Positions 4,204-44,771 of a stretch of 64,000 nt of DNA are shown in pieces. Both the position numbers and the translations under genes were made by a program. Within the stretch, counting starts at the first letter, position 1; every line of letters begins with the position of its first letter. Under the pieces are notes generated by a model. That model was not told the origin of the DNA and did not search any database. It was given only the letters and a program-made list of their open reading frames with translations. The stretch comes from Candidatus Bathyarchaeia archaeon (GTDB lineage: Archaea; Thermoproteota; Bathyarchaeia; 40CM-2-53-6; CALIRQ01): NCBI GenBank assembly GCA_038843675.1, contig JAWBRV010000004.1, positions 20,442 through 84,441 on the forward strand. Reading direction: 5' to 3'.

Positions 4204-4803
4204 TTGGCGATAACAAAGTTCAATCGCGCCGTCGAGGGCATAATAGGCGGCGTCCTCTCCTCCCTCTCTTCCATCGACGAGGCCCAAGTCGAGAAGATGA
4301 TCGATATCCTATTGGAGTCGAGGGATAAGAAGATATTGATCATAGGCGTGGGGAGGAGCGGGCTCGTTGGGAAGGCCTTTGCCATGCGCCTCATGCACTT
4401 GGGCTTCAACGTCTACGTCATGGGGGAGACGATAACGCCCGCCATAGGGAAGGGGGATCTGATAATAGCGATCTCCGGATCGGGCACGACGAAGCTAGCC
4501 GTCACGGCAGCGGAGATAGGCAAGGAGGTGAACGCGAGGATAATTGCCATAACCTCCTTCCCGGATTCGGACCTTGGGAAGCTCGCGGAGCATGTGGTTG
4601 TCGTCAGGGGCAGGACCAAGCTGGCGAAGGAGAAGGATTATTTCTTGAGGCAGATAATGGGAGTCCATGAACCGCTGGCCCCCCTCGGGACGATCTTCGA
4701 GATATCCGCGCTCGTCTTCTTGGATAGCCTCGTCGTCGAACTCATGCATAGGCTCGGGGAAACCGAGGAGGAAATGAAGAACAGGCACGCCACCATAGAG
4801 TGA
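4204..4803 (+). CDS. SIS-domain sugar-phosphate isomerase, likely 6-phospho-3-hexuloisomerase (PHI)
   Basis: About 199 aa; SIS motifs ILIIGVGRSG and AISGSGTT. Confidence 0.6.
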   Translation: MAITKFNRAVEGIIGGVLSSLSSIDEAQVEKMIDILLESRDKKILIIGVGRSGLVGKAFAMRLMHLGFNVYVMGETITPAIGKGDLIIAISGSGTTKLAVTAAEIGKEVNARIIAITSFPDSDLGKLAEHVVVVRGRTKLAKEKDYFLRQIMGVHEPLAPLGTIFEISALVFLDSLVVELMHRLGETEEEMKNRHATIE

Positions 4804-4819: not shown

Positions 4820-6139
4820 ATGTCGGTCCTAATAAGGGATTGCGATTGGATAATCACCGAGGACGCCCATAGGAGCGTCCTGAGGGATAAATCCGTATAC
4901 ATCGAGGATGGCTTGATAATCGAGATCGGTGATAGGATCGGGTGCGAGGCCGATTACGTAATCGATGGATCCAAGAAGCTATTGATGCCCGGCCTCATAA
5001 ACGCGCATACCCATTTGGCCATGACGCTCTTCAGGGGATACGCCGACGACATGCCCGTCAAGGAATGGTTGGAGACGAAAATATGGCCTTTGGAGGCGTG
5101 GCTCGACGAAAGGGACGTCTTCGCCGGCTCAATGCTCGGTTGCCTCGAGATGATAGAGACCGGGACAACTTGCTTCTTGGATATGTACTTCTTCAACAAG
5201 GCCACGGCCGATGCCGTCGAGAAATCCGGGCTTAGGGCGGTCCTATCCTACGCGATCCTCGATGCATTCGACCCCGAATCGAAGGGCGCGCCGGATATCG
5301 CCCGGAAGCTCGCCTCCTTCAGGAAGGCCCCGGGGGGCGGAAGGGTGGAATATGCCATCGGGCCCCACGCCCCATACTCCTGCTCGGATGAAACCCTGCT
5401 CAAATGCAAGGAGAGGGCCATGGAGGAGGACGCGCTGATCCATACGCATATAGCCGAGGCGGAATGGGAGAGGAGGCTATTCGAGGAGAAGCATGGGAAG
5501 GGAGTGGTCGCGCATTTGGATGAGATCGGCTTCCTATGCGAGAACTTAGTGGCCGCGCATTGCGTTTGGCTGGATGAGGGGGAGATATCCCTGATGTCCA
5601 AGAGGGGTGCCAAGGTGGCCCTCTGCCCCATATCCAATATGAAGCTAGCGGTCGGCGGCCTCGCTCCAGCCCCCAAGATGTTGCGCGGGGGATTGGCCAT
5701 ATCTCTCGGGACCGACGGCGCGGCGAGCAATAACTCCCTCGATATGTTCGGCGCCATGAAGATCTGCGCTTTGGCCCATAAATTCGCGGAGCGCGATCCA
5801 ACGGCCCTCCCGGCGAGCGCGGTATTGGATTTCGCGACCATAGGGGGAGCCATGGCGCTGAGGAAGGAGAAGGAGATAGGGAGCGTGGAGGTCGGCAAGA
5901 GGGCCGACCTGATACTCTTGGATTTGAGGGCCCCGAACCTCCGCCCCATACATGGGAAGGATACGGTCGTTTCGGACGTGGTCTATTCGGCGAGCGGATT
6001 CAACGTGGACACGACCATCGTTGATGGGAGGCCCCTCATGCTCAACCGGGAGCTCCTCACATTGGATAGGGATGAGGTCCTCGAGGAGGCCGAGGAGGCG
6101 GCCCTGAGGCTCTTGGAGCGCGGCCGCGGATCGGCTTGA
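4820..6139 (+). CDS. mtaD: Amidohydrolase, MTA/SAH (5'-deoxyadenosine) deaminase-like
   Basis: PGLINAHTHLAMT metal-binding motif; 439 aa chlorohydrolase/deaminase architecture. Confidence 0.7.
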   Translation: MSVLIRDCDWIITEDAHRSVLRDKSVYIEDGLIIEIGDRIGCEADYVIDGSKKLLMPGLINAHTHLAMTLFRGYADDMPVKEWLETKIWPLEAWLDERDVFAGSMLGCLEMIETGTTCFLDMYFFNKATADAVEKSGLRAVLSYAILDAFDPESKGAPDIARKLASFRKAPGGGRVEYAIGPHAPYSCSDETLLKCKERAMEEDALIHTHIAEAEWERRLFEEKHGKGVVAHLDEIGFLCENLVAAHCVWLDEGEISLMSKRGAKVALCPISNMKLAVGGLAPAPKMLRGGLAISLGTDGAASNNSLDMFGAMKICALAHKFAERDPTALPASAVLDFATIGGAMALRKEKEIGSVEVGKRADLILLDLRAPNLRPIHGKDTVVSDVVYSASGFNVDTTIVDGRPLMLNRELLTLDRDEVLEEAEEAALRLLERGRGSA

Positions 6140-11096: not shown

Positions 11097-11188
11097 GCGG
11101 CCGTAGTCCAGCCTGGTCTAAGACGCTGGCCTCCCATCGCTAGGGGAGCCAGCCAGTAACCCGGGTTCGAATCCCGGCGGCCGCACCA
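11097..11188 (+). tRNA. tRNA-Gly(CCC) with about 14-nt intron after position 37
   Basis: Acceptor GCGGCCG…CGGCCGC-A-CCA, T-arm CCGGG-TTCGAAT-CCCGG, anticodon loop CUCCCA|intron|A. Confidence 0.75.
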
Positions 11189-11665: not shown

Positions 11666-12367
11666 TTGTTCCCAAACGTCGTGGAGGAGCGATCATATAG
11701 GGACAGGGTCCGAATATTCGAGGATAGGGCGCATGCGGGCGAGCTCTTGGCCCTGAAGCTGCAAAAATACTCGAGGTCCCCGGATGCGATCCTCTTCGCG
11801 ATACCATCCGGCGGCATCCCGGTCGCGTTGACAATCGCCCGGGCCCTTGGGATCCCGCTCGATGTGGCGGTTGTCAGGAAGGCGCAGATCCCTTGGAACC
11901 CGGAGGCGGGGTTCGGGGCGGTGGCTTGGGACGGGGAAACAGTCCTAAACGAGCCCCTGATGGAGCGCTTGGGCCTCGGCCGAGCCGCCATCGAGGGGGC
12001 GATCTCGATGGCCAAGGCGATCGTCGAGGATAGGCTCAGGAGGTTCAGGGGCGATAAACCCTTCCCGGATCTTAGGGGCAAGACGGCCATAATCGTGGAC
12101 GACGGATTGGCCTCGGGGTTCACGATGCTGGCGGCCGTTAGAGCGGTCCGGAGGATGGGCCCAAGGGCCGTGGTGGTGGCCGTGCCGACCGCCTCCTCCG
12201 AGGCGATCGCCCTATTGGCGCCGGAGGTGGATGGGCTCATTTGCCTCAACATCAGGGGCGGCCCGATATTCGCGGTCGCCGACGCGTATCGGCATTGGCG
12301 CGACGTTCCCGATGAGGAGGCGCTAGGGGCTTTGGAGCGCGCTCGGCGGGAGGGGATCGCCATATGA
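11666..12367 (+). CDS. Phosphoribosyltransferase-domain protein (COG1926-like)
   Basis: PRPP-binding loop IIVDDGLASGFTM. The TTG start is uncertain (GTG 11681 possible). Confidence 0.65.
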   Translation: MFPNVVEERSYRDRVRIFEDRAHAGELLALKLQKYSRSPDAILFAIPSGGIPVALTIARALGIPLDVAVVRKAQIPWNPEAGFGAVAWDGETVLNEPLMERLGLGRAAIEGAISMAKAIVEDRLRRFRGDKPFPDLRGKTAIIVDDGLASGFTMLAAVRAVRRMGPRAVVVAVPTASSEAIALLAPEVDGLICLNIRGGPIFAVADAYRHWRDVPDEEALGALERARREGIAI

Positions 12368-12894
12368 GGCAGATCGCCGTGATAGGGAGCGGGGGCCCGA
12401 TACCGGAGGGGGTCCGCGCGATGGCGGAGGAACTTGGGCGGGCCATAGCACGCGCCGGCGCCGTCCTGATAACAGGGGGGAGGGGAGGGGTTATGGAGGC
12501 GGCTTGCAAGGGGGCCAAGGAGGCCGGGGGCTTAACGGTCGGGATCCTGCCCGGGCCGGATGGTCGAGATGCCAACCCATACGTTGACATAGCGATCGTA
12601 ACGGGCATGGGGGACGCGAGGAACGTAATCAACGTCAGATCGGCCGATGCCGTGATCGTGGTCCACGGGGGCGCTGGGACCCTCTCCGAGGTCGGCTTGG
12701 CCCTCAAGGCTGGGAAGAGGGTCATAGCCATAAAGCCCTCCGGAGGAGTGGCGGAGCTCGTCGCCGGATTGGCCATGGGCGGAGGGAATGTGATCCCGGC
12801 GGGCTCCGTGGAGGAGGCGATCGAGCTGGCCTTGGGAGGGCCCGAGGGGCGCCATGGGGCGTTTGGGGAGCGGATCGGGGATGAAGATCGCTGA
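12364..12894 (+). CDS. LOG/SLOG-family Rossmann protein (TIGR00725-like)
   Basis: GGxGGVME…GGxGT pattern; ATGA overlap with the upstream PRTase gene. Confidence 0.65.
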   Translation: MRQIAVIGSGGPIPEGVRAMAEELGRAIARAGAVLITGGRGGVMEAACKGAKEAGGLTVGILPGPDGRDANPYVDIAIVTGMGDARNVINVRSADAVIVVHGGAGTLSEVGLALKAGKRVIAIKPSGGVAELVAGLAMGGGNVIPAGSVEEAIELALGGPEGRHGAFGERIGDEDR

Positions 12895-13624
12895 GGAGCT
12901 AGGCCTGAGGGTGAACCCAAGGCTTCGCGTCGTCGCCCTAACGGGCGCCGGCATATCCATCGAGAGCGGGGTCCCGATCTTCAGGGGCAAGGGTTCCATG
13001 TGGGAGATCCCCGAGGCCAGGAGGCTCGCGGAGAGGGCCGGGCCGCCTTGGAATACGAAGGAGACTTGGGAGTATTACGAATGGAGGAGGGGCCTCGTCA
13101 GCCGTTGCGAGCCGAATCGGGCCCATTATGCGCTGGCGGAGATGGAGAAATACTTCGAGGATTTCCTACTAATAACTCAGAACGTCGACGGCCTTCACGC
13201 TAGGGCGGGTAGCAGGAGGCTTTTGGAGCTTCATGGGAGCATGTGGAGGGGGAGATGCATCGAATGCGGCCAAGTCATCGATCTGCCCGAAACGCCCCTG
13301 AGGGCCTTGCCGCCCCTTTGTACCTGCGGCCAAGCCTTGCGCCCGGACGTCGTCCAATTCGGGGAGCCCATAGACCCCAAGATCCTGAGCGCAGCCTTCA
13401 AGGCCTGCAAACGGGCCGAGCTGTTCTTGGTTATAGGAACTTCGGCGGTCGTTTATCCGGCCGCCCAAATGCCCTTGGTGGCGATCGAAGGGGGCGCGAG
13501 GGCCGTGGAGATCAACCCGAACCCAACCCCCTTGACCCCCTTCATGAGCCTATCGATCCGCGGGAGGGCGGCGGAGGCCCTGCCTAGGCTTTGGGAGGAG
13601 CTTTTATCGAGCGCCTCTGGGTGA
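12881..13624 (+). CDS. cobB: NAD-dependent protein deacylase, Sir2 family (CobB-like)
   Basis: GAGISxESGxPxFRG, Zn ribbon CIECG…CTCG, QNVDGLH. ATG 12881 overlaps the LOG stop. Confidence 0.8.
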   Translation: MKIAEELGLRVNPRLRVVALTGAGISIESGVPIFRGKGSMWEIPEARRLAERAGPPWNTKETWEYYEWRRGLVSRCEPNRAHYALAEMEKYFEDFLLITQNVDGLHARAGSRRLLELHGSMWRGRCIECGQVIDLPETPLRALPPLCTCGQALRPDVVQFGEPIDPKILSAAFKACKRAELFLVIGTSAVVYPAAQMPLVAIEGGARAVEINPNPTPLTPFMSLSIRGRAAEALPRLWEELLSSASG

Positions 13625-13631
13625 GGGCGCA

Positions 13632-14342
13632 TTGGGCACTTATGGGATCCCGAGGATATTGCTCGGCACCTCGCCCTTCATCGGCGCCGGGCAATTCGGG
13701 CGCAAGGCCCCCTCCTATTACGCCAAGTTCTACCTGAACCCGGGGAATATATTGGGCATCATAAGGAGGGCCTATGGGCTGGGGATAGATGGAATCCAGC
13801 TCCTGCCCTATGGGCCCGTCGTGAAGGCGGTTGAGCGGGCCCTTGAGGAAGGGATGGAGCTGAGGATCGTTGGGAGCGTGAGGCTTCGGGAGGCGGAGGG
13901 GGACATAAGCCTATTGGAGCGGCTCGGGGCCGTCGCCATGATCGCCCATGCTGAGATCGCCGACTTGAGGGATCGGGAAACCCTCGAGGGGATCCTCAAT
14001 GCGATCCATGAAACCGGGAGGCCGGCCGGGCTCGCATCCCACAAGCCCTTCAGGACACTGAGCTGGCTCGAGGGGCTGGGCTTGAAGTATGAGATCCTTA
14101 TGGTCCCGGTGAACGCCGCCGGGGCCTTCATGGATTGTAGGCCCGAGGGGCTCGCGGCATTGCTCAAGCGCCTCGGGAAGTTCGTCATCGCGAAGAAGGC
14201 CTTGGCCGCGGGGTCGCTGCCGCCCGCGGAAGCCCTTACCTACGTGGCGAGCTTGGATTGCGTCAACAGCGTCGCCCTAGGGGTCGCCTCGGAAAAGGAG
14301 GTCGATGAAACAATGGCCTTGGCCAAGCGCCTCTTGGCTTGA
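13632..14342 (+). CDS. Hypothetical protein
   Basis: 236 aa ORF with coding-like composition; no family recognised. Confidence 0.4.
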   Translation: MGTYGIPRILLGTSPFIGAGQFGRKAPSYYAKFYLNPGNILGIIRRAYGLGIDGIQLLPYGPVVKAVERALEEGMELRIVGSVRLREAEGDISLLERLGAVAMIAHAEIADLRDRETLEGILNAIHETGRPAGLASHKPFRTLSWLEGLGLKYEILMVPVNAAGAFMDCRPEGLAALLKRLGKFVIAKKALAAGSLPPAEALTYVASLDCVNSVALGVASEKEVDETMALAKRLLA

Positions 14343-14386
14343 TCGCAGGTCGCGAGCCATAGCCTCGCTCCTGCGCGGCCCTTTGA

Positions 14387-15895
14387 TCAATGCCTAGGCC
14401 GAGAGGGCCCCGCCGCGGACAGCCTCCACATCTCCTCCTTCGTGAGCTCATATAGGTTCCTGTAGGATCGATAGAGCCTCAGGTATTCGGCATGGGCGCT
14501 CTTCGAAGGCCTCGTAACCTCCCCGGCCCTAATCCACCCCTTTATGGCCCTCCAGCTCCCGATCGCCCCGCATCCGATCCCAGCGAGGAAGGCATCCCCC
14601 AAAGGGGCCCCCGGGTTCCTAGGGTCATAGCGCTGCGTTATGCCCGTCGCATCCGTGACTATCTTCCGCCAAAGCCGGCTCTTGGCCCCTCCATCGACCG
14701 CCACCCAGCCCTTGATTCTAACGCCCAGCTCCGCGTATATCTCCAAATGGTGCAGGAGGCCGTAGCCGAACGCCTCCAAGATGGCCCTATAGACGTGCGC
14801 ATCCGTATGGTATAAGTTCAGGCCGAATATCATCCCCTTAGCCTTGGGATCCATTATGGGCGACCTCTCCCCCATGAAGTACGGCAATACGATTATGCCC
14901 TCGGAGCCCGGCGGGATCCTAGCGGCCCGCTCCTCCAGCTCCCTCAGGTCCCCTTCCCTCTTGCCCCTCAACCTCCTGAACCATTCCACTATGGCGCCGA
15001 CCGTTTGCATCGCTATGGCCGATACCCATTTCCCAGGCCTGACGTGATGGCCGAAGTATAGCCCCCTATGGATTATCGGCCTCGAAATGCATGTATAGGC
15101 TGCGCCGACCGAGCCATAGGAGAGCATCGACTCCCCATCCTCTATAACGCCCGCGCTCAATGCGGACACGTTCGCATCGCATGACCCGGCCACGACCGGC
15201 GTCCCCTTCGCCAAGCCGACCTCCCTCGCCGCCGCCCCACTCACCTCGCCGACCACTGAGCCCGCCTCCACGAGCTCGGGCAGCATGGCTGGGTCGATCC
15301 CTACGGCCTCGCAGAGCTCATCGCTCCATTCGCCCTTTCGGACGTCCGAAAGCCCAGTCATATCGGCGACGTAATAATCGGAGGCGAAGGAGCCCGTTAG
15401 CTTGTTCAGGACGTAGCAATGGGAGGAGGGGGCAATCCTCTCCGTCCTCTCGAAGAGCTTGGGCTCATGTCGCTTGAACCAGAGGATCTTGGGCGCCAGC
15501 ATCCTATGGCTTATTGGGTTCCCATTTATTTCGAGGAACCTTTCGTCCCCGAGCTCGGCCTTGAGGTGGTCTATCTCAGCCGCGGCCCTCGTATCCATAT
15601 ATAGGATCGATTTGCGGAGCGGCCTCCCCCTCCCATCCAAGGGCGTCAGGTTCGTCGAGAGCCCGCTAATGCCCACGCAGGCGATATCCCTCCCCTCCGC
15701 CCCCTTCAAGCATGCCCTAACGGCCCTCTTGAAGGCGATCCACCAATTCCTCTCCGGATCCTGCTCCGCCCATCCGGGCTTGGGGAAGGAGACCTCGTTG
15801 CTTACCCTCGAGCTTGATAGGATCCTCCCCAGCGGATCGACTAGGACGGCCTTGCAGGCCGACGTCCCTATGTCCACGCCCAGCAGATTGGACAA
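14387..15895 (-). CDS. FGGY-family carbohydrate kinase
   Basis: N-terminal LGVDIGTSACKAVL and two-domain FGGY architecture, 502 aa. Confidence 0.75.
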   Translation of the reverse strand: MSNLLGVDIGTSACKAVLVDPLGRILSSSRVSNEVSFPKPGWAEQDPERNWWIAFKRAVRACLKGAEGRDIACVGISGLSTNLTPLDGRGRPLRKSILYMDTRAAAEIDHLKAELGDERFLEINGNPISHRMLAPKILWFKRHEPKLFERTERIAPSSHCYVLNKLTGSFASDYYVADMTGLSDVRKGEWSDELCEAVGIDPAMLPELVEAGSVVGEVSGAAAREVGLAKGTPVVAGSCDANVSALSAGVIEDGESMLSYGSVGAAYTCISRPIIHRGLYFGHHVRPGKWVSAIAMQTVGAIVEWFRRLRGKREGDLRELEERAARIPPGSEGIIVLPYFMGERSPIMDPKAKGMIFGLNLYHTDAHVYRAILEAFGYGLLHHLEIYAELGVRIKGWVAVDGGAKSRLWRKIVTDATGITQRYDPRNPGAPLGDAFLAGIGCGAIGSWRAIKGWIRAGEVTRPSKSAHAEYLRLYRSYRNLYELTKEEMWRLSAAGPSRPRH

Positions 15896-15914
15896 CGGGA
15901 TCAGGGCCCGGCTT

Positions 15915-17228
15915 TCATTTGGGCTTGAAGACGACCTCCTTGGGCCGCTCGTAAACCCCCCACTTCTCTATGGCCGCCCTCAGCTCCTCGTGGTCCCTCG
16001 CGTACTCCTCCAGCCTTATGCCCTTGGCGGCCGCGATCGAGGCCTGCACCATGGCCCTCACGCCGGCCTTGGTCCCCATCGGATGGCCCAAGATCCCTCC
16101 CCCCGCGATCATCATGAAATCAATGCCTATGTCATTGACGTGCTGCATCGCCAAGCCCGGGTATACGGCCCCTCCCAAGGCCGGCATAGCGGCCTTGATC
16201 CCGTGGAGCGGGTCCCTCAAGGCGCGGACGGACCAGAAGTACTCGCTGATGGGCTGGTACATCTTCCCATAGGGAGTGGAGAGGACCGTGAGATCCGCCC
16301 CGCAGATCCTGACGAGCTTCTTAATGACCGAATAGTTCATCCCAAGCCTCTCGGGCCTCATGAAGGCCCTGGCCATCGCCGGGTGGGCCAGTATGGGGAC
16401 CTTTATGCTCGGATCCTCGGCTATCGCCCTGAGGATCGAATAGCCCGCCGTTACATAGTTTATTAGGAGGCAGTTGGCGCCCGCTTGAACGGCCCATTCG
16501 GCGATCTCGGGCATTTTGTCGACCTCATCCGTTATATTCAAGGCGTAGAGGCATTTCTTGCCGCTCTCCTGACAACCCCTATCGATGGCCTCCATCGCGG
16601 CCGAGAGCCTATCCTCCCTTTTGCAATACGACGGGTTGGATTGCATCTCATCGTCCTTTATCAGGTCCGCCCCTCCCGCGGCCGCCTCATAGCAGACCTT
16701 GGCGACCTCCCTTGGGGCCATCCCGAGCTTGGGCTTCATTATGGCTCCGACCAAGGGCCTATCGCCCACGCGGAGGAGATCCCTCAAGCCCCCTATCCCG
16801 AACTTCGGCCCCTTGAACTCCCTCAGGAAGGACTTTGGCATGAATAGGTCGACGAGCTTCACGGAGGCTAGGCCCATGGAGTATATATTGCCCGCTATGC
16901 CCGTCATGACCATCGTTATGGGCATGCCATCGCCGAAGTTCGCCAATGGGTGGGCGACCAAGGCGAGGAACTTCCTAGAATCGCCCTCGGCCGGGAACTC
17001 GTAGACCCCCAAGACCTTCCCTTGGCTCCTCTCCCTAATCTCATCCGTTTCGGTTGGGACCCTCAACCAAGTCCCGGTCGTGGCCTCGGCGGCCAAGGCC
17101 TCGGCCACCTTCGAGGGCTCCCTATCCCCGGAGGCCTCTATCCTATAGGCGGCTATAAGGAACGCCTCTTGGTCGATCCCCTCAAAGATCGAGAAGGCGT
17201 AGGGGTCATAGGTATATTCCCTCTCCAA
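15915..17228 (-). CDS. rbcL: Ribulose-bisphosphate carboxylase large subunit, type III
   Basis: Motifs GxDxxKDDE and GGGxxGHP. Likely TTG start (MEREYTYDPY); the ORF to 17306 extends into the promoter. Confidence 0.85.
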   Translation of the reverse strand: MEREYTYDPYAFSIFEGIDQEAFLIAAYRIEASGDREPSKVAEALAAEATTGTWLRVPTETDEIRERSQGKVLGVYEFPAEGDSRKFLALVAHPLANFGDGMPITMVMTGIAGNIYSMGLASVKLVDLFMPKSFLREFKGPKFGIGGLRDLLRVGDRPLVGAIMKPKLGMAPREVAKVCYEAAAGGADLIKDDEMQSNPSYCKREDRLSAAMEAIDRGCQESGKKCLYALNITDEVDKMPEIAEWAVQAGANCLLINYVTAGYSILRAIAEDPSIKVPILAHPAMARAFMRPERLGMNYSVIKKLVRICGADLTVLSTPYGKMYQPISEYFWSVRALRDPLHGIKAAMPALGGAVYPGLAMQHVNDIGIDFMMIAGGGILGHPMGTKAGVRAMVQASIAAAKGIRLEEYARDHEELRAAIEKWGVYERPKEVVFKPK

Positions 17229-17239
17229 CCGGCATCCCC

Positions 17240-17275
17240 TTCGATCCTGATCGCTTCGATAGTATAAAATATAAA
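17240..17275 (-). promoter_or_regulatory. TATA-box promoter for rbcL
   Basis: Minus-strand TTTTATATTTTATA about 40 nt upstream of the TTG start, with an AGGGGAT SD-like element. Confidence 0.45.
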
Positions 17276-17669
17276 AATATGGTATAATCCCCGCGCATCC
17301 ATTCACATCCCTTCGCTCTCAAGGGGCCCAGCCGGTCGAGGGCCACGGGGGATGGGTATGGATCCGCCAAAAAATGGCGAATGCTAATGCTTCCGCTCCA
17401 AGCGAAGCCAGCGGCCGGCGCGGCCTCTATGGCCCCGGCGAGCGACGCGATGGCATATTTCCGCTCCGGAGGAGGCCTTGGTTTGAATGGGCCGCGGTGG
17501 ATCCCCTCAGCCGATCGAATGCGCCTCAATGGTTTGAGATTTCGGGCGGCCGAGGTTCACCGAACCCATGGATGGAGATCTCTTAGCTATGGCGACGCTC
17601 CCGATCGGCCTTCGTCTAAGCGAGGCGGCCCGCAACTATTCGGACTTTCGTGAATCGGCGGGCCCCTCG

Positions 17670-43676: not shown

Positions 43677-44771
43677 TCATCGAAGATAGGAGTTCAAATC
43701 CCTTATATCCAGCTCATCGGTTGAGAGGATGTTCCTGATGAAGTTGAAGATCTTTCGCCTGATCTCCGCCGTTAGGGTCGGATACCAGATCGGGCTCGCC
43801 ACCACTAGGGCCCTCCAAGCGTAGAAGGGCTGTATGACGCGGAGGAGCTCCTCATCGCCCGTCAGGTCCAGATATTCGCGCATGAACCGATCGTAGAGCC
43901 GAAGGAAGGGCCCATCGAGGCGCCCATGGGCTTGGAGCGAGAAGAATAGGTAGTTTATGCTCATGGCAGCCACGTCATCGGCGGCCTCCCCCCATTCGCC
44001 CCGGCTCCGATCTAGGACCGAGAAATCGGTCCCCTCGCGGAAGAGCACGTTCCAAGGGTGGAAATCTCCGTGGACTTGGCAGAGCCTATGGCCCTTCCCC
44101 TTGAGCCTCCACCTCCATCCAACGCACATTCGCTCGATCTCCTCGAGCTCCTTCGCGCTCGTGAAGCCGATCTCAGCGGGGTAACTGTCCAATAGGCCCA
44201 TTATGCATTCCCCATGCCCGACGAGCTCCCTGATCCGCCTCGCGTATAAGCTCGGCGAATGTCCCCTCACCGAATGGATCTCGGCCAAGTAGCTCGATAG
44301 GGCATCGCACCTAGCCAAGTCCAATGGCCCTAGCGCCCCCTCCGCCCTTATCCTCTCCAGATCCCTATAATACCCCGAGCCCTCCACCCTCTCGAGGAGG
44401 ATGAAGGGCTCCTCGATATCGCCGATCGACCTCATGGCCCCGCCCTTCGAGAAATAGCCCAGATCTATCGCCTTGGCATGCCTTGGGAGCTTGTTGTACG
44501 TGGAATGGGCCAATGAGAGGGATTGGAGGCGATCGGATAAATGCTCATGGCCGAATCCATCGGCGCGCATCGTCTCCAAGACCGCGCTCCTCCTTTCGCC
44601 CCCAACCGAGAACTCTATCAGATAGGGCCTGCCATATCCGAAGCCCTTCAACTCCCCCCGGGCTCCCACTGCCCCCTCGGCCCCTCCCAATTCCCTCACA
44701 GAAGTTATCGAAACCTCGGTCCCGTGGATCGAGGCCAAATACCTCCTCAATTCCTCCAAGTTTAACGACAT
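43677..44771 (-). CDS. Phosphotransferase-family kinase (APH/ChoK fold)
   Basis: HGDFHPWN catalytic motif. Confidence 0.6.
   Translation of the reverse strand: MSLNLEELRRYLASIHGTEVSITSVRELGGAEGAVGARGELKGFGYGRPYLIEFSVGGERRSAVLETMRADGFGHEHLSDRLQSLSLAHSTYNKLPRHAKAIDLGYFSKGGAMRSIGDIEEPFILLERVEGSGYYRDLERIRAEGALGPLDLARCDALSSYLAEIHSVRGHSPSLYARRIRELVGHGECIMGLLDSYPAEIGFTSAKELEEIERMCVGWRWRLKGKGHRLCQVHGDFHPWNVLFREGTDFSVLDRSRGEWGEAADDVAAMSINYLFFSLQAHGRLDGPFLRLYDRFMREYLDLTGDEELLRVIQPFYAWRALVVASPIWYPTLTAEIRRKIFNFIRNILSTDELDIRDLNSYLR

Follow-up and report, generated by a model that had tools for sequence, protein, structure and literature searches.

What does a protein of the Rubisco family do when the gene directly behind it encodes a sugar kinase of the FGGY family? 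The question is raised by a 64,000-nt stretch of a Candidatus Bathyarchaeia genome (contig JAWBRV010000004.1, positions 20,442 to 84,441; hereafter the window), where the initial annotation took the first gene of such a pair for a type III Rubisco and proposed that the kinase opens a pentose route to its substrate, ribulose 1,5-bisphosphate (RuBP). Our analysis leads elsewhere: the first protein is very probably a Rubisco-like protein (RLP, form IV) and not a RuBP carboxylase, it probably works together with the kinase, and the operon, on what we consider the better reading by a moderate degree, has the two enzymes acting in sequence on a sugar monophosphate and not feeding RuBP.

Open reading frames (ORFs) and Pfam matches agree that a gene of the rbcL family is followed on the same (minus) strand by one for a 502-aa FGGY kinase, as first described. 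The gap between them is indeed short, but measures 19 nt and not 20:

15915..17228, minus strand: gene for the RLP, 437 aa from a TTG start
14387..15895, minus strand: gene for the XylB-like FGGY-family carbohydrate kinase, 502 aa, with FGGY_N and FGGY_C domains
15896..15914, minus strand: spacer from the RLP stop codon to the kinase start codon, 19 nt, without AT-rich element and without T-run
17259..17281, minus strand: AT-rich, TATA-like element 5' of the RLP gene, 23 nt, minus-strand sequence CATATTTTTATATTTTATACTAT

The maximal ORF of the RLP gene spans 15915–17306 (463 aa from a GTG at 17306); the probable start is the in-frame TTG at 17228, since the resulting 437 aa match in length P0001, a 97% identical database protein from a Bathyarchaeia metagenome-assembled genome (MAG), and other homologues. 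P0121, also from a Bathyarchaeia MAG, is 100% identical to the kinase. The AT-rich island lies ~30–50 nt upstream of the TTG and is the only stretch with at least 11 A/T in 12 positions between 11.2 and 18.9 kb, while 39 such islands exist in the whole 64 kb. The early remark that a strong TATA-like element is found only 5' of the Rubisco-family gene thus holds, and we infer that this island is the promoter element of the RLP gene. A hairpin-terminator scan revealed no terminator-like sites in 14200–17500 (its sigma-70 promoter part is not meaningful for an archaeon, so it was used only for this purpose). Neither an AT-rich element nor a T-run nor a hairpin terminator is found between or inside the two genes, and in the spacer no separate promoter or terminator is detected, in line with the initial annotation. 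This makes one promoter for both genes the simplest reading, and the pair is probably a bicistronic operon, co-transcribed.

Is the first protein a Rubisco at all? It carries the Pfam domains RuBisCO_large_N (PF02788, 1.1e-15) and RuBisCO_large (PF00016, 3.5e-55), and it stays below every curated NCBIfam equivalog cut-off, Rubisco and RLP alike:

Type III Rubisco, TIGR03326: 292.6, cut-off 497.45
Rubisco large-subunit subfamily, NF003252: 285.8, cut-off 438
MtnW, NF007095: 287.6, cut-off 409
MtnW, TIGR03332: 231.7, cut-off 513.6
OiaX, NF042437: 237.2, cut-off 700

Solved structures are about equally far, with form III enzymes at 237 (6hun), 234 (8dht) and 220 bits (1geh) and RLPs at 232 (1tel), 222 (4nas) and 218 bits (2zvi). 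The residues of the active site are more telling. In an alignment indexed on a form I sequence (spinach numbering) and including four solved form III enzymes, no form I or form III reference lacks any of E60, T65, W66, N123, K175, K177, K201, D203, E204, H294, R295, H298, H327, K334, S379, G380, G381, G403 and G404. The window RLP retains E60, T65, W66, N123, K175, K177, K201, D203, E204, H294, K334, G380, G403 and G404 and has five substitutions: R295P, H298A, H327V, S379G and G381A. What is retained includes the Mg/carbamate triad, with the K201/D203/E204 metal site intact in a KDDE motif, the enolisation residues and the glycines of the proximal phosphate site. R295, H298 and H327, which by established structural knowledge of Rubisco complexes with carboxyarabinitol bisphosphate hold RuBP by its C5 (distal) phosphate, are altered in all tabulated members of the clade formed by the window RLP and its closest relatives (L081–L084, L086 and L087; the window clade). 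Counted from the TTG start, the former distal-phosphate pocket of the window RLP has P283, A286 and V316.

The same division appears in a neighbour-joining tree of 98 sequences (416 columns, 200 bootstraps), with form I, four form III enzymes from the PDB, OiaX, a haloarchaeal RLP, the C. tepidum RLP, two MtnW and 4nas as references. Form I, form III and a form-III-like clade of five sequences are split from all others with 90% bootstrap, and the window clade, itself supported by 100%, falls on the RLP side of that split, as sister (78%) to a small group (L026, L051 and L057) and next (68%) to a large MtnW-like assemblage.

Could the protein still be a working form III Rubisco, with the kinase feeding it RuBP via a new pentose route, as originally proposed? 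Likeness to archaeal form III enzymes (T. kodakarensis 1geh, P. horikoshii 2cwx, H. butylicus 6hun) is real: identity is ~30–35% as estimated from alignments, 6hun is the top PDB match, the length is similar, and E60, T65, W66, N123, K177 and K334 are conserved, E60, N123, K177 and K334 being carboxylation-step residues of true Rubiscos that MtnW lacks. The rubisco_III model is, marginally, the best single NCBIfam model, and residue-complete form-III-like Rubiscos neighbouring in the family are also linked to FGGY kinases. In the window, the Pfam scan of the larger ORFs (not every short one) found none of the genes of known routes, AMP phosphorylase, ribose-1,5-bisphosphate (R15P) isomerase and phosphoribulokinase (PRK); this answers, for the window, the search that had been called for. 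Against this stand the score of 292.6 where 497.45 is demanded, the change of R295, H298 and H327 to P, A and V together with altered S379 and G381, all five retained by form I, form III and the form-III-like clade, and the position on the RLP side of the tree. Moreover, RuBP carries two phosphates, of which an FGGY kinase supplies one. We rejected the type III label on residues, cut-offs and tree, and since the protein is an RLP that has lost the distal-phosphate site, it is very unlikely that pentoses are channelled to RuBP here. Like P. horikoshii 2cwx, the window RLP has no insertion after loop 6. The absence of these ~15 aa is no hallmark of RLPs, as that form III enzyme and the form-III-like clade share it.

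The public annotation offers another identity, that of MtnW, the 2,3-diketo-5-methylthiopentyl-1-phosphate enolase of methionine salvage, with the kinase as an unrelated neighbour. JGI annotates many relatives as this enolase, and the likeness to MtnW/YkrW-type RLPs (PDB 2oek and 2zvi) extends over the Rubisco large-subunit fold, the core of K175, K201, D203, E204 and H294, the proline in place of R295 (the 'HP' motif, H294-P295), the PYG motif before loop 6 ('PYGK' in the window RLP) and small or hydrophobic residues at the distal phosphate site. A larger related group comes near the MtnW model score (L061, 397 against 409). The window protein, however, is under both MtnW cut-offs (287.6/409 and 231.7/513.6) and reaches ~213–218 bits with the solved MtnWs, which have G60, K123, M/V177 and S334 where it has E, N, K and K. 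Its conserved partner is an FGGY kinase and not the APH-fold MtnK, and no mtn genes are near the pair: among the scanned window ORFs there are no Pfam families of mtnK, mtnA, mtnB, mtnX or mtnD type, save one weak APH match. We therefore regard the enolase assignment as improbable. That APH match (2.5e-8, without NCBIfam match) lies ~27 kb from the pair, in a gene of 364 aa on the minus strand (43677–44771) adjoining an APS-kinase-like gene; APH is the fold family of MtnK, and no link of this gene to the RLP was seen. By its place in the tree the window clade is a distinct form IV lineage, and the window RLP is set off from MtnW by its E60, N123, K177 and K334. A metagenome scan for further members added only L096–L099, so the clade is rare in that collection.

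The kinase is easier to place by family than by substrate. Pfam finds FGGY_N (PF00370, 2e-55) and FGGY_C (PF02782, 7.2e-23). The best model is XylB (TIGR01312), where its score of 351.8 is 28 bits short of the cut-off of 380.25, with 247.9 against 912 on the E. coli-type xylulokinase model NF011601 and far lower scores on the models for gluconate, glycerol, AI-2, fuculose, ribulose and rhamnulose kinases. Its best solved relatives are an uncharacterised R. rubrum FGGY kinase (3ifr, 260 bits) and E. coli XylB (2itm, 234 bits). D8, G10, D240 and G402 are intact and invariant across an alignment of 24 RLP-linked FGGYs. Another ten FGGY kinases linked to RLPs are XylB-like too, at 237–356 bits, all under the TIGR01312 cut-off. 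Unlike XylB, it has no xylose isomerase or transporter context, with neither xylA nor a xylose transporter among the scanned window ORFs or in the related loci inspected. By its profile scores it is a XylB-like FGGY carbohydrate kinase below the xylulokinase cut-off, and we assign no specificity. The initial annotation had reasoned that firm clustering with glycerol or xylulose kinases and no conserved Rubisco linkage would speak against its proposal; the kinase does resemble XylB best, but under the cut-off, and linkage to the Rubisco family is conserved, as the relatives of the pair demonstrate:

L084 and L085: RLP 97% identical; kinase directly after RLP, 95% identical to the window kinase
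L083: RLP 63%; kinase directly after RLP, 56–57%
L087: RLP 62%; kinase directly after RLP, 56%
L091, L099 and L123: RLP 66%; kinase directly after RLP, 54–57%
L124: kinase directly after RLP, 57%
L086: RLP 62%; different FGGY after RLP, 31% to the window kinase
L082: RLP 61%; FGGY 5.5 kb downstream, past a UPF0261 protein and a Zn-alcohol dehydrogenase, 35% to the window kinase

Thus in most window-clade loci the kinase directly follows the RLP gene, and since flanking genes vary among these loci the pair is conserved as a unit. By called gene coordinates the 19-nt spacing recurs in the 97% relative L084 (4505 to 4525) and in L123 (9981 to 10001). The reciprocal test, in which kinase homologues were sought in a collection of 5.8 billion proteins, gave few nearest homologues (P0122–P0125, 54–57% identity), and those looked up all adjoin an RLP gene, lying downstream of it. 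The next tier, at 45% identity (L125–L127), sits in a sugar cluster without RLP, containing an ABC transporter, DeoC, FBA, Fae-HPS, TIM, a Zn-alcohol dehydrogenase and a class II aldolase.

The association extends over the superfamily. We surveyed 88 loci, comprising 80 GTDB representatives (37–47% identity) and the closer relatives. In 24/88 an FGGY gene lies next to the Rubisco-family gene, co-oriented and less than 300 nt away, and in 45/88 one is present within the fetched flank (10 kb). FGGY is the commonest neighbour family (36 loci by clustering, with 11 for the runner-up) and is concentrated within 1.5 kb of the Rubisco-family gene. Either gene of the pair can come first, and the hosts are archaea as well as bacteria: Bathyarchaeia, Asgard archaea, Thermoplasmata, Chloroflexota, Clostridia, Actinomycetota and others. 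FGGY subclusters mirror RLP clades, and pairwise identities of RLPs and of their nearest FGGYs are correlated with a Mantel r of 0.87, which 0 of 2000 permutations reach.

Is adjacency without functional meaning, of an ordinary xylulokinase and an RLP with an unrelated role, compatible with this pattern? Such a view can point to XylB as the best kinase model only 28 bits above the observed score, to the 45%-identical homologue in a sugar-catabolic cluster devoid of RLP, to a lineage with 78% RLP identity that has the RLP without the kinase (discussed below) and to the window itself, with no other pathway genes. But order and short spacers are kept at 61–66% RLP and 54–57% kinase identity in differing surroundings, FGGY is the top neighbour family-wide and concentrated within 1.5 kb, kinase clusters track RLP clades, and no xylA or xylose genes are nearby. 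We consider meaningless adjacency unlikely. The pairing, as these comparisons indicate, is not chance but a conserved linkage, and the kinase can be retained from the initial annotation as a real, co-oriented and probably co-transcribed partner.

What is the role of the pair then? All characterised RLPs first enolise a RuBP-like phosphate ester and then reprotonate it, oxygenate it or move a carboxyl group (PMC10176493). The neighbours of the window-clade relatives include Zn- or Fe-alcohol dehydrogenases, short-chain-type (SDR) epimerase/dehydratase proteins, small cupins, aldehyde:ferredoxin oxidoreductase, a Liv-type ABC transporter and a PTE-family hydrolase, and those of the wider family include SorC regulators, GlpA-like FAD dehydrogenases, 2-hydroxyacid dehydrogenases, class II aldolases, class-III aminotransferases and saccharopine-dehydrogenase-like proteins. 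Genes of these kinds belong to the repertoire of sugar and polyol breakdown. RLPs typically act after a kinase, as in the pairs MtnK-MtnW and DUF1537 kinase-OiaX, and a DUF1537 kinase stands with the RLP in L089 and L090.

On the basis of this neighbourhood and of the enolising, kinase-paired precedent of characterised RLPs, we propose the following mechanism. The FGGY kinase would phosphorylate a ketose or polyol carrying no other phosphate. The RLP would bind the resulting monophosphate, in a pocket where the proximal phosphate site is kept and a small apolar pocket replaces the distal one, and would take the proton beside the carbonyl to give an enediolate, using the Mg2+ site (carbamylated K201, D203 and E204) and the K175/H294 machinery. 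The enediolate would then be reprotonated, with isomerisation or epimerisation as the likely outcome within this scheme and tautomerisation of the MtnW 'enolase' type as the alternative, and the product would be a sugar phosphate usable by central metabolism. We infer the order of the two steps, the class of substrate and the type of chemistry; isomerase or epimerase activity specifically is a tentative assignment. The R. rubrum RLP, a 5-methylthio-D-ribulose-1-P 1,3-isomerase, isomerises a ketose monophosphate via enediolates to a xylulose-5-phosphate-type product, the kind of compound that an XylB-like kinase makes. It differs in its context of methylthioadenosine (MTA) salvage, and the comparison concerns its reaction. 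Rubisco, in turn, mis-protonates its enediol to xylulose bisphosphate, a chemical precedent.

The monophosphate made by the kinase could instead undergo C–C chemistry on the RLP (carboxylation, decarboxylation or transcarboxylation), as in the RLPs of the apiose pathway. OiaX and its relatives, found with a DUF1537 'four-carbon acid sugar kinase', share with the window pair the operon logic of kinase plus RLP and a phosphorylated sugar derivative. They differ in the kinase, DUF1537 against FGGY in the window, and in sequence: the window RLP scores 237 on the OiaX model against a cut-off of 700, and OiaX_Rleg has F at W66 and W at H298 and keeps R295. Retention of E60, N123, K177 and K334, unlike in MtnW, would suit C–C chemistry, and RLPs that decarboxylate or transcarboxylate do exist (OiaX model in NCBIfam; PMC10176493). 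The wider family, however, much of which is MtnW-like by score, mostly keeps E60, N123 and K334, so these three alone are no sign of carboxylation. Overall we find this alternative quite unlikely. An even bolder form of it, which we would call a long shot, is that the window clade represents a Rubisco derivative with the carboxylation apparatus (E60, N123, K175, K177, carbamyl-K201 and K334) and without the C5-phosphate site, performing Rubisco-type C–C chemistry (carboxylation plus cleavage, or the reverse) on an FGGY-supplied ketose monophosphate. If true, this would be a RuBP-independent Rubisco reaction and the clade a living intermediate between Rubisco and RLPs.

Several points weigh against our proposal that kinase and RLP act in sequence on a sugar monophosphate. 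The tree placement outside forms I–III is moderately strong, coming from neighbour joining alone and few references. The Mantel correlation is partly expected from shared host phylogeny. The partner FGGY within the window clade is not always the same orthologue (31% identity in L086 and 35% in L082). In L081, L097 and L098, at 78% RLP identity, there is no FGGY within 10 kb: the synteny MscS-thioesterase-DUF6125-RLP-ORF236-SIR2-SLOG-PRTase is retained and the FGGY gene is missing between RLP and ORF236 homologue, so the RLP can do without a kinase next to it. As the kinase tree parallels the RLP tree, it is more parsimonious to assume that this lineage lost or relocated the kinase than that the window gained it; the L081 RLP also carries N123E and G404A. 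No dehydrogenase, isomerase or transporter accompanies the pair among the scanned ORFs of the window. Nor is it evident how the kinase product would fit the RLP site, since XylB-type kinases usually phosphorylate a hydroxyl far from the keto group and the retained phosphate site of the RLP adjoins the carbonyl.

Metabolic genes are missing from the immediate surroundings of the pair in the window. On its upstream side it is preceded by a small zinc-ribbon ORF and by genes for a DUF6125 protein, a thioesterase and MscS; downstream and convergent is a separate operon:

11666-14342, plus strand: tightly packed four-gene unit of a phosphoribosyltransferase (PRTase)-domain protein, a SLOG/TIGR00725 protein, a SIR2-family protein and the 236-aa ORF236

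ORF236 (13632-14342), convergent with the kinase gene, has no Pfam, NCBIfam or PDB relative, and its spacing places it in the SIR2 operon, so it is not counted in the RLP-kinase unit. At least ORF236-SIR2-SLOG is kept in L081 and L084, with the PRTase also in L081, and the unit looks like a nucleotide/NAD-processing module. Further away, at 4204–4803 (plus), the SIS protein described as similar to 6-phospho-3-hexuloisomerase indeed passes the cut-off for that enzyme (TIGR03127, 186.8 against 160). The gene after it (4820–6139, plus) encodes an amidohydrolase that falls into the TRZ/ATZ and 5'-deoxyadenosine/MTA deaminase group and reaches none of the cut-offs. These genes lie ~10 kb away from the RLP-kinase pair, with which the relatives showed no link. 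A tRNA gene of ~90 nt lies at 11097–11188 (plus; Rfam 53.5 bits), for which ARAGORN assigns no anticodon and calls a four-base 'ccca' loop, an odd call with an archaeal intron as the likely cause. Class I LysRS, deoxyhypusine synthase and aEF-2 are archaeal markers in the window.

Related lineages show other arrangements. Residue-complete form-III-like Rubiscos from Promethearchaeota, Bathyarchaeia and Nitrososphaeria MAGs (L035:9917-12710, L070:7850-14938 and L080:510-5666) are just below the curated cut-offs (442–464 against 497 on the type III model and 427–436 against 438 on the Rubisco subfamily model). Each adjoins an orthologous FGGY, with 41–55% mutual identity and 26–28% to the window kinase, and L070 and L080 have a second, unrelated FGGY. 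Near such Rubiscos, a HAD phosphatase occurs in L063 and L070, a class II aldolase in L080 and a 2-hydroxyacid dehydrogenase in L035. The RuBP-feeding idea could still apply to these enzymes next to their own FGGY, and a kinase-fed, PRK-independent route is worth considering there. The next-closest relatives outside the window clade, at 44–49% identity (L094:9561-10805, L095:8133-9377, L006 and P0009–P0012), keep R295, H327, K334 and S379 and have K177C and H298F; the group is a type between Rubisco and RLP. L094 and L095 carry the gene inside a gluconeogenic cluster (GAPDH, fructose-bisphosphate aldolase/phosphatase, TIM and a CCG/Fe-S protein), followed by an amino-acid-kinase-family gene.

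UPF0261 (Tm-1-like ATP-binding) is a second recurrent neighbour of RLPs (L003–L005, L034, L053, L057 and L082), often with a PEP-hydrolase-like TIM-barrel protein, and may be another kinase-type partner. In Clostridia and Desulfovibrionaceae (L007, L008, L017, L020, L047 and L048) the RLP is found with an FGGY, a GlpA-like FAD dehydrogenase with BFD domain, a pyridine-nucleotide-disulphide oxidoreductase and a SorC regulator. Such a set resembles erythritol-type polyol catabolism (kinase, polyol-phosphate dehydrogenase, ketose-phosphate isomerases), with the RLP in the isomerase position.

RLP-plus-kinase modules as such are already known, while an FGGY-coupled RLP appears to be new: the literature searched contains no paper in which a kinase of the FGGY, xylulokinase, ribulokinase or carbohydrate-kinase kind is connected with an RLP or with a Rubisco of prokaryotes, although an earlier mention is possible. 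Few RLPs have a known reaction, and each one solved gave new chemistry (enolase, 1,3-isomerase, decarboxylase/transcarboxylase, oxygenase). An FGGY kinase with an RLP is a recurrent, testable two-gene unit, present in Bathyarchaeia, Asgard archaea, Chloroflexota, Clostridia and others, in which the kinase provides an experimental handle on the substrate of the RLP. Carboxylation residues kept and a distal phosphate site lost, as in the window clade, bear on the divergence of Rubisco and RLPs. If metagenome surveys counted such genes among the form III Rubiscos or the methionine-salvage enolases, Bathyarchaeia would be wrongly credited with a capacity for carbon fixation or sulfur salvage.

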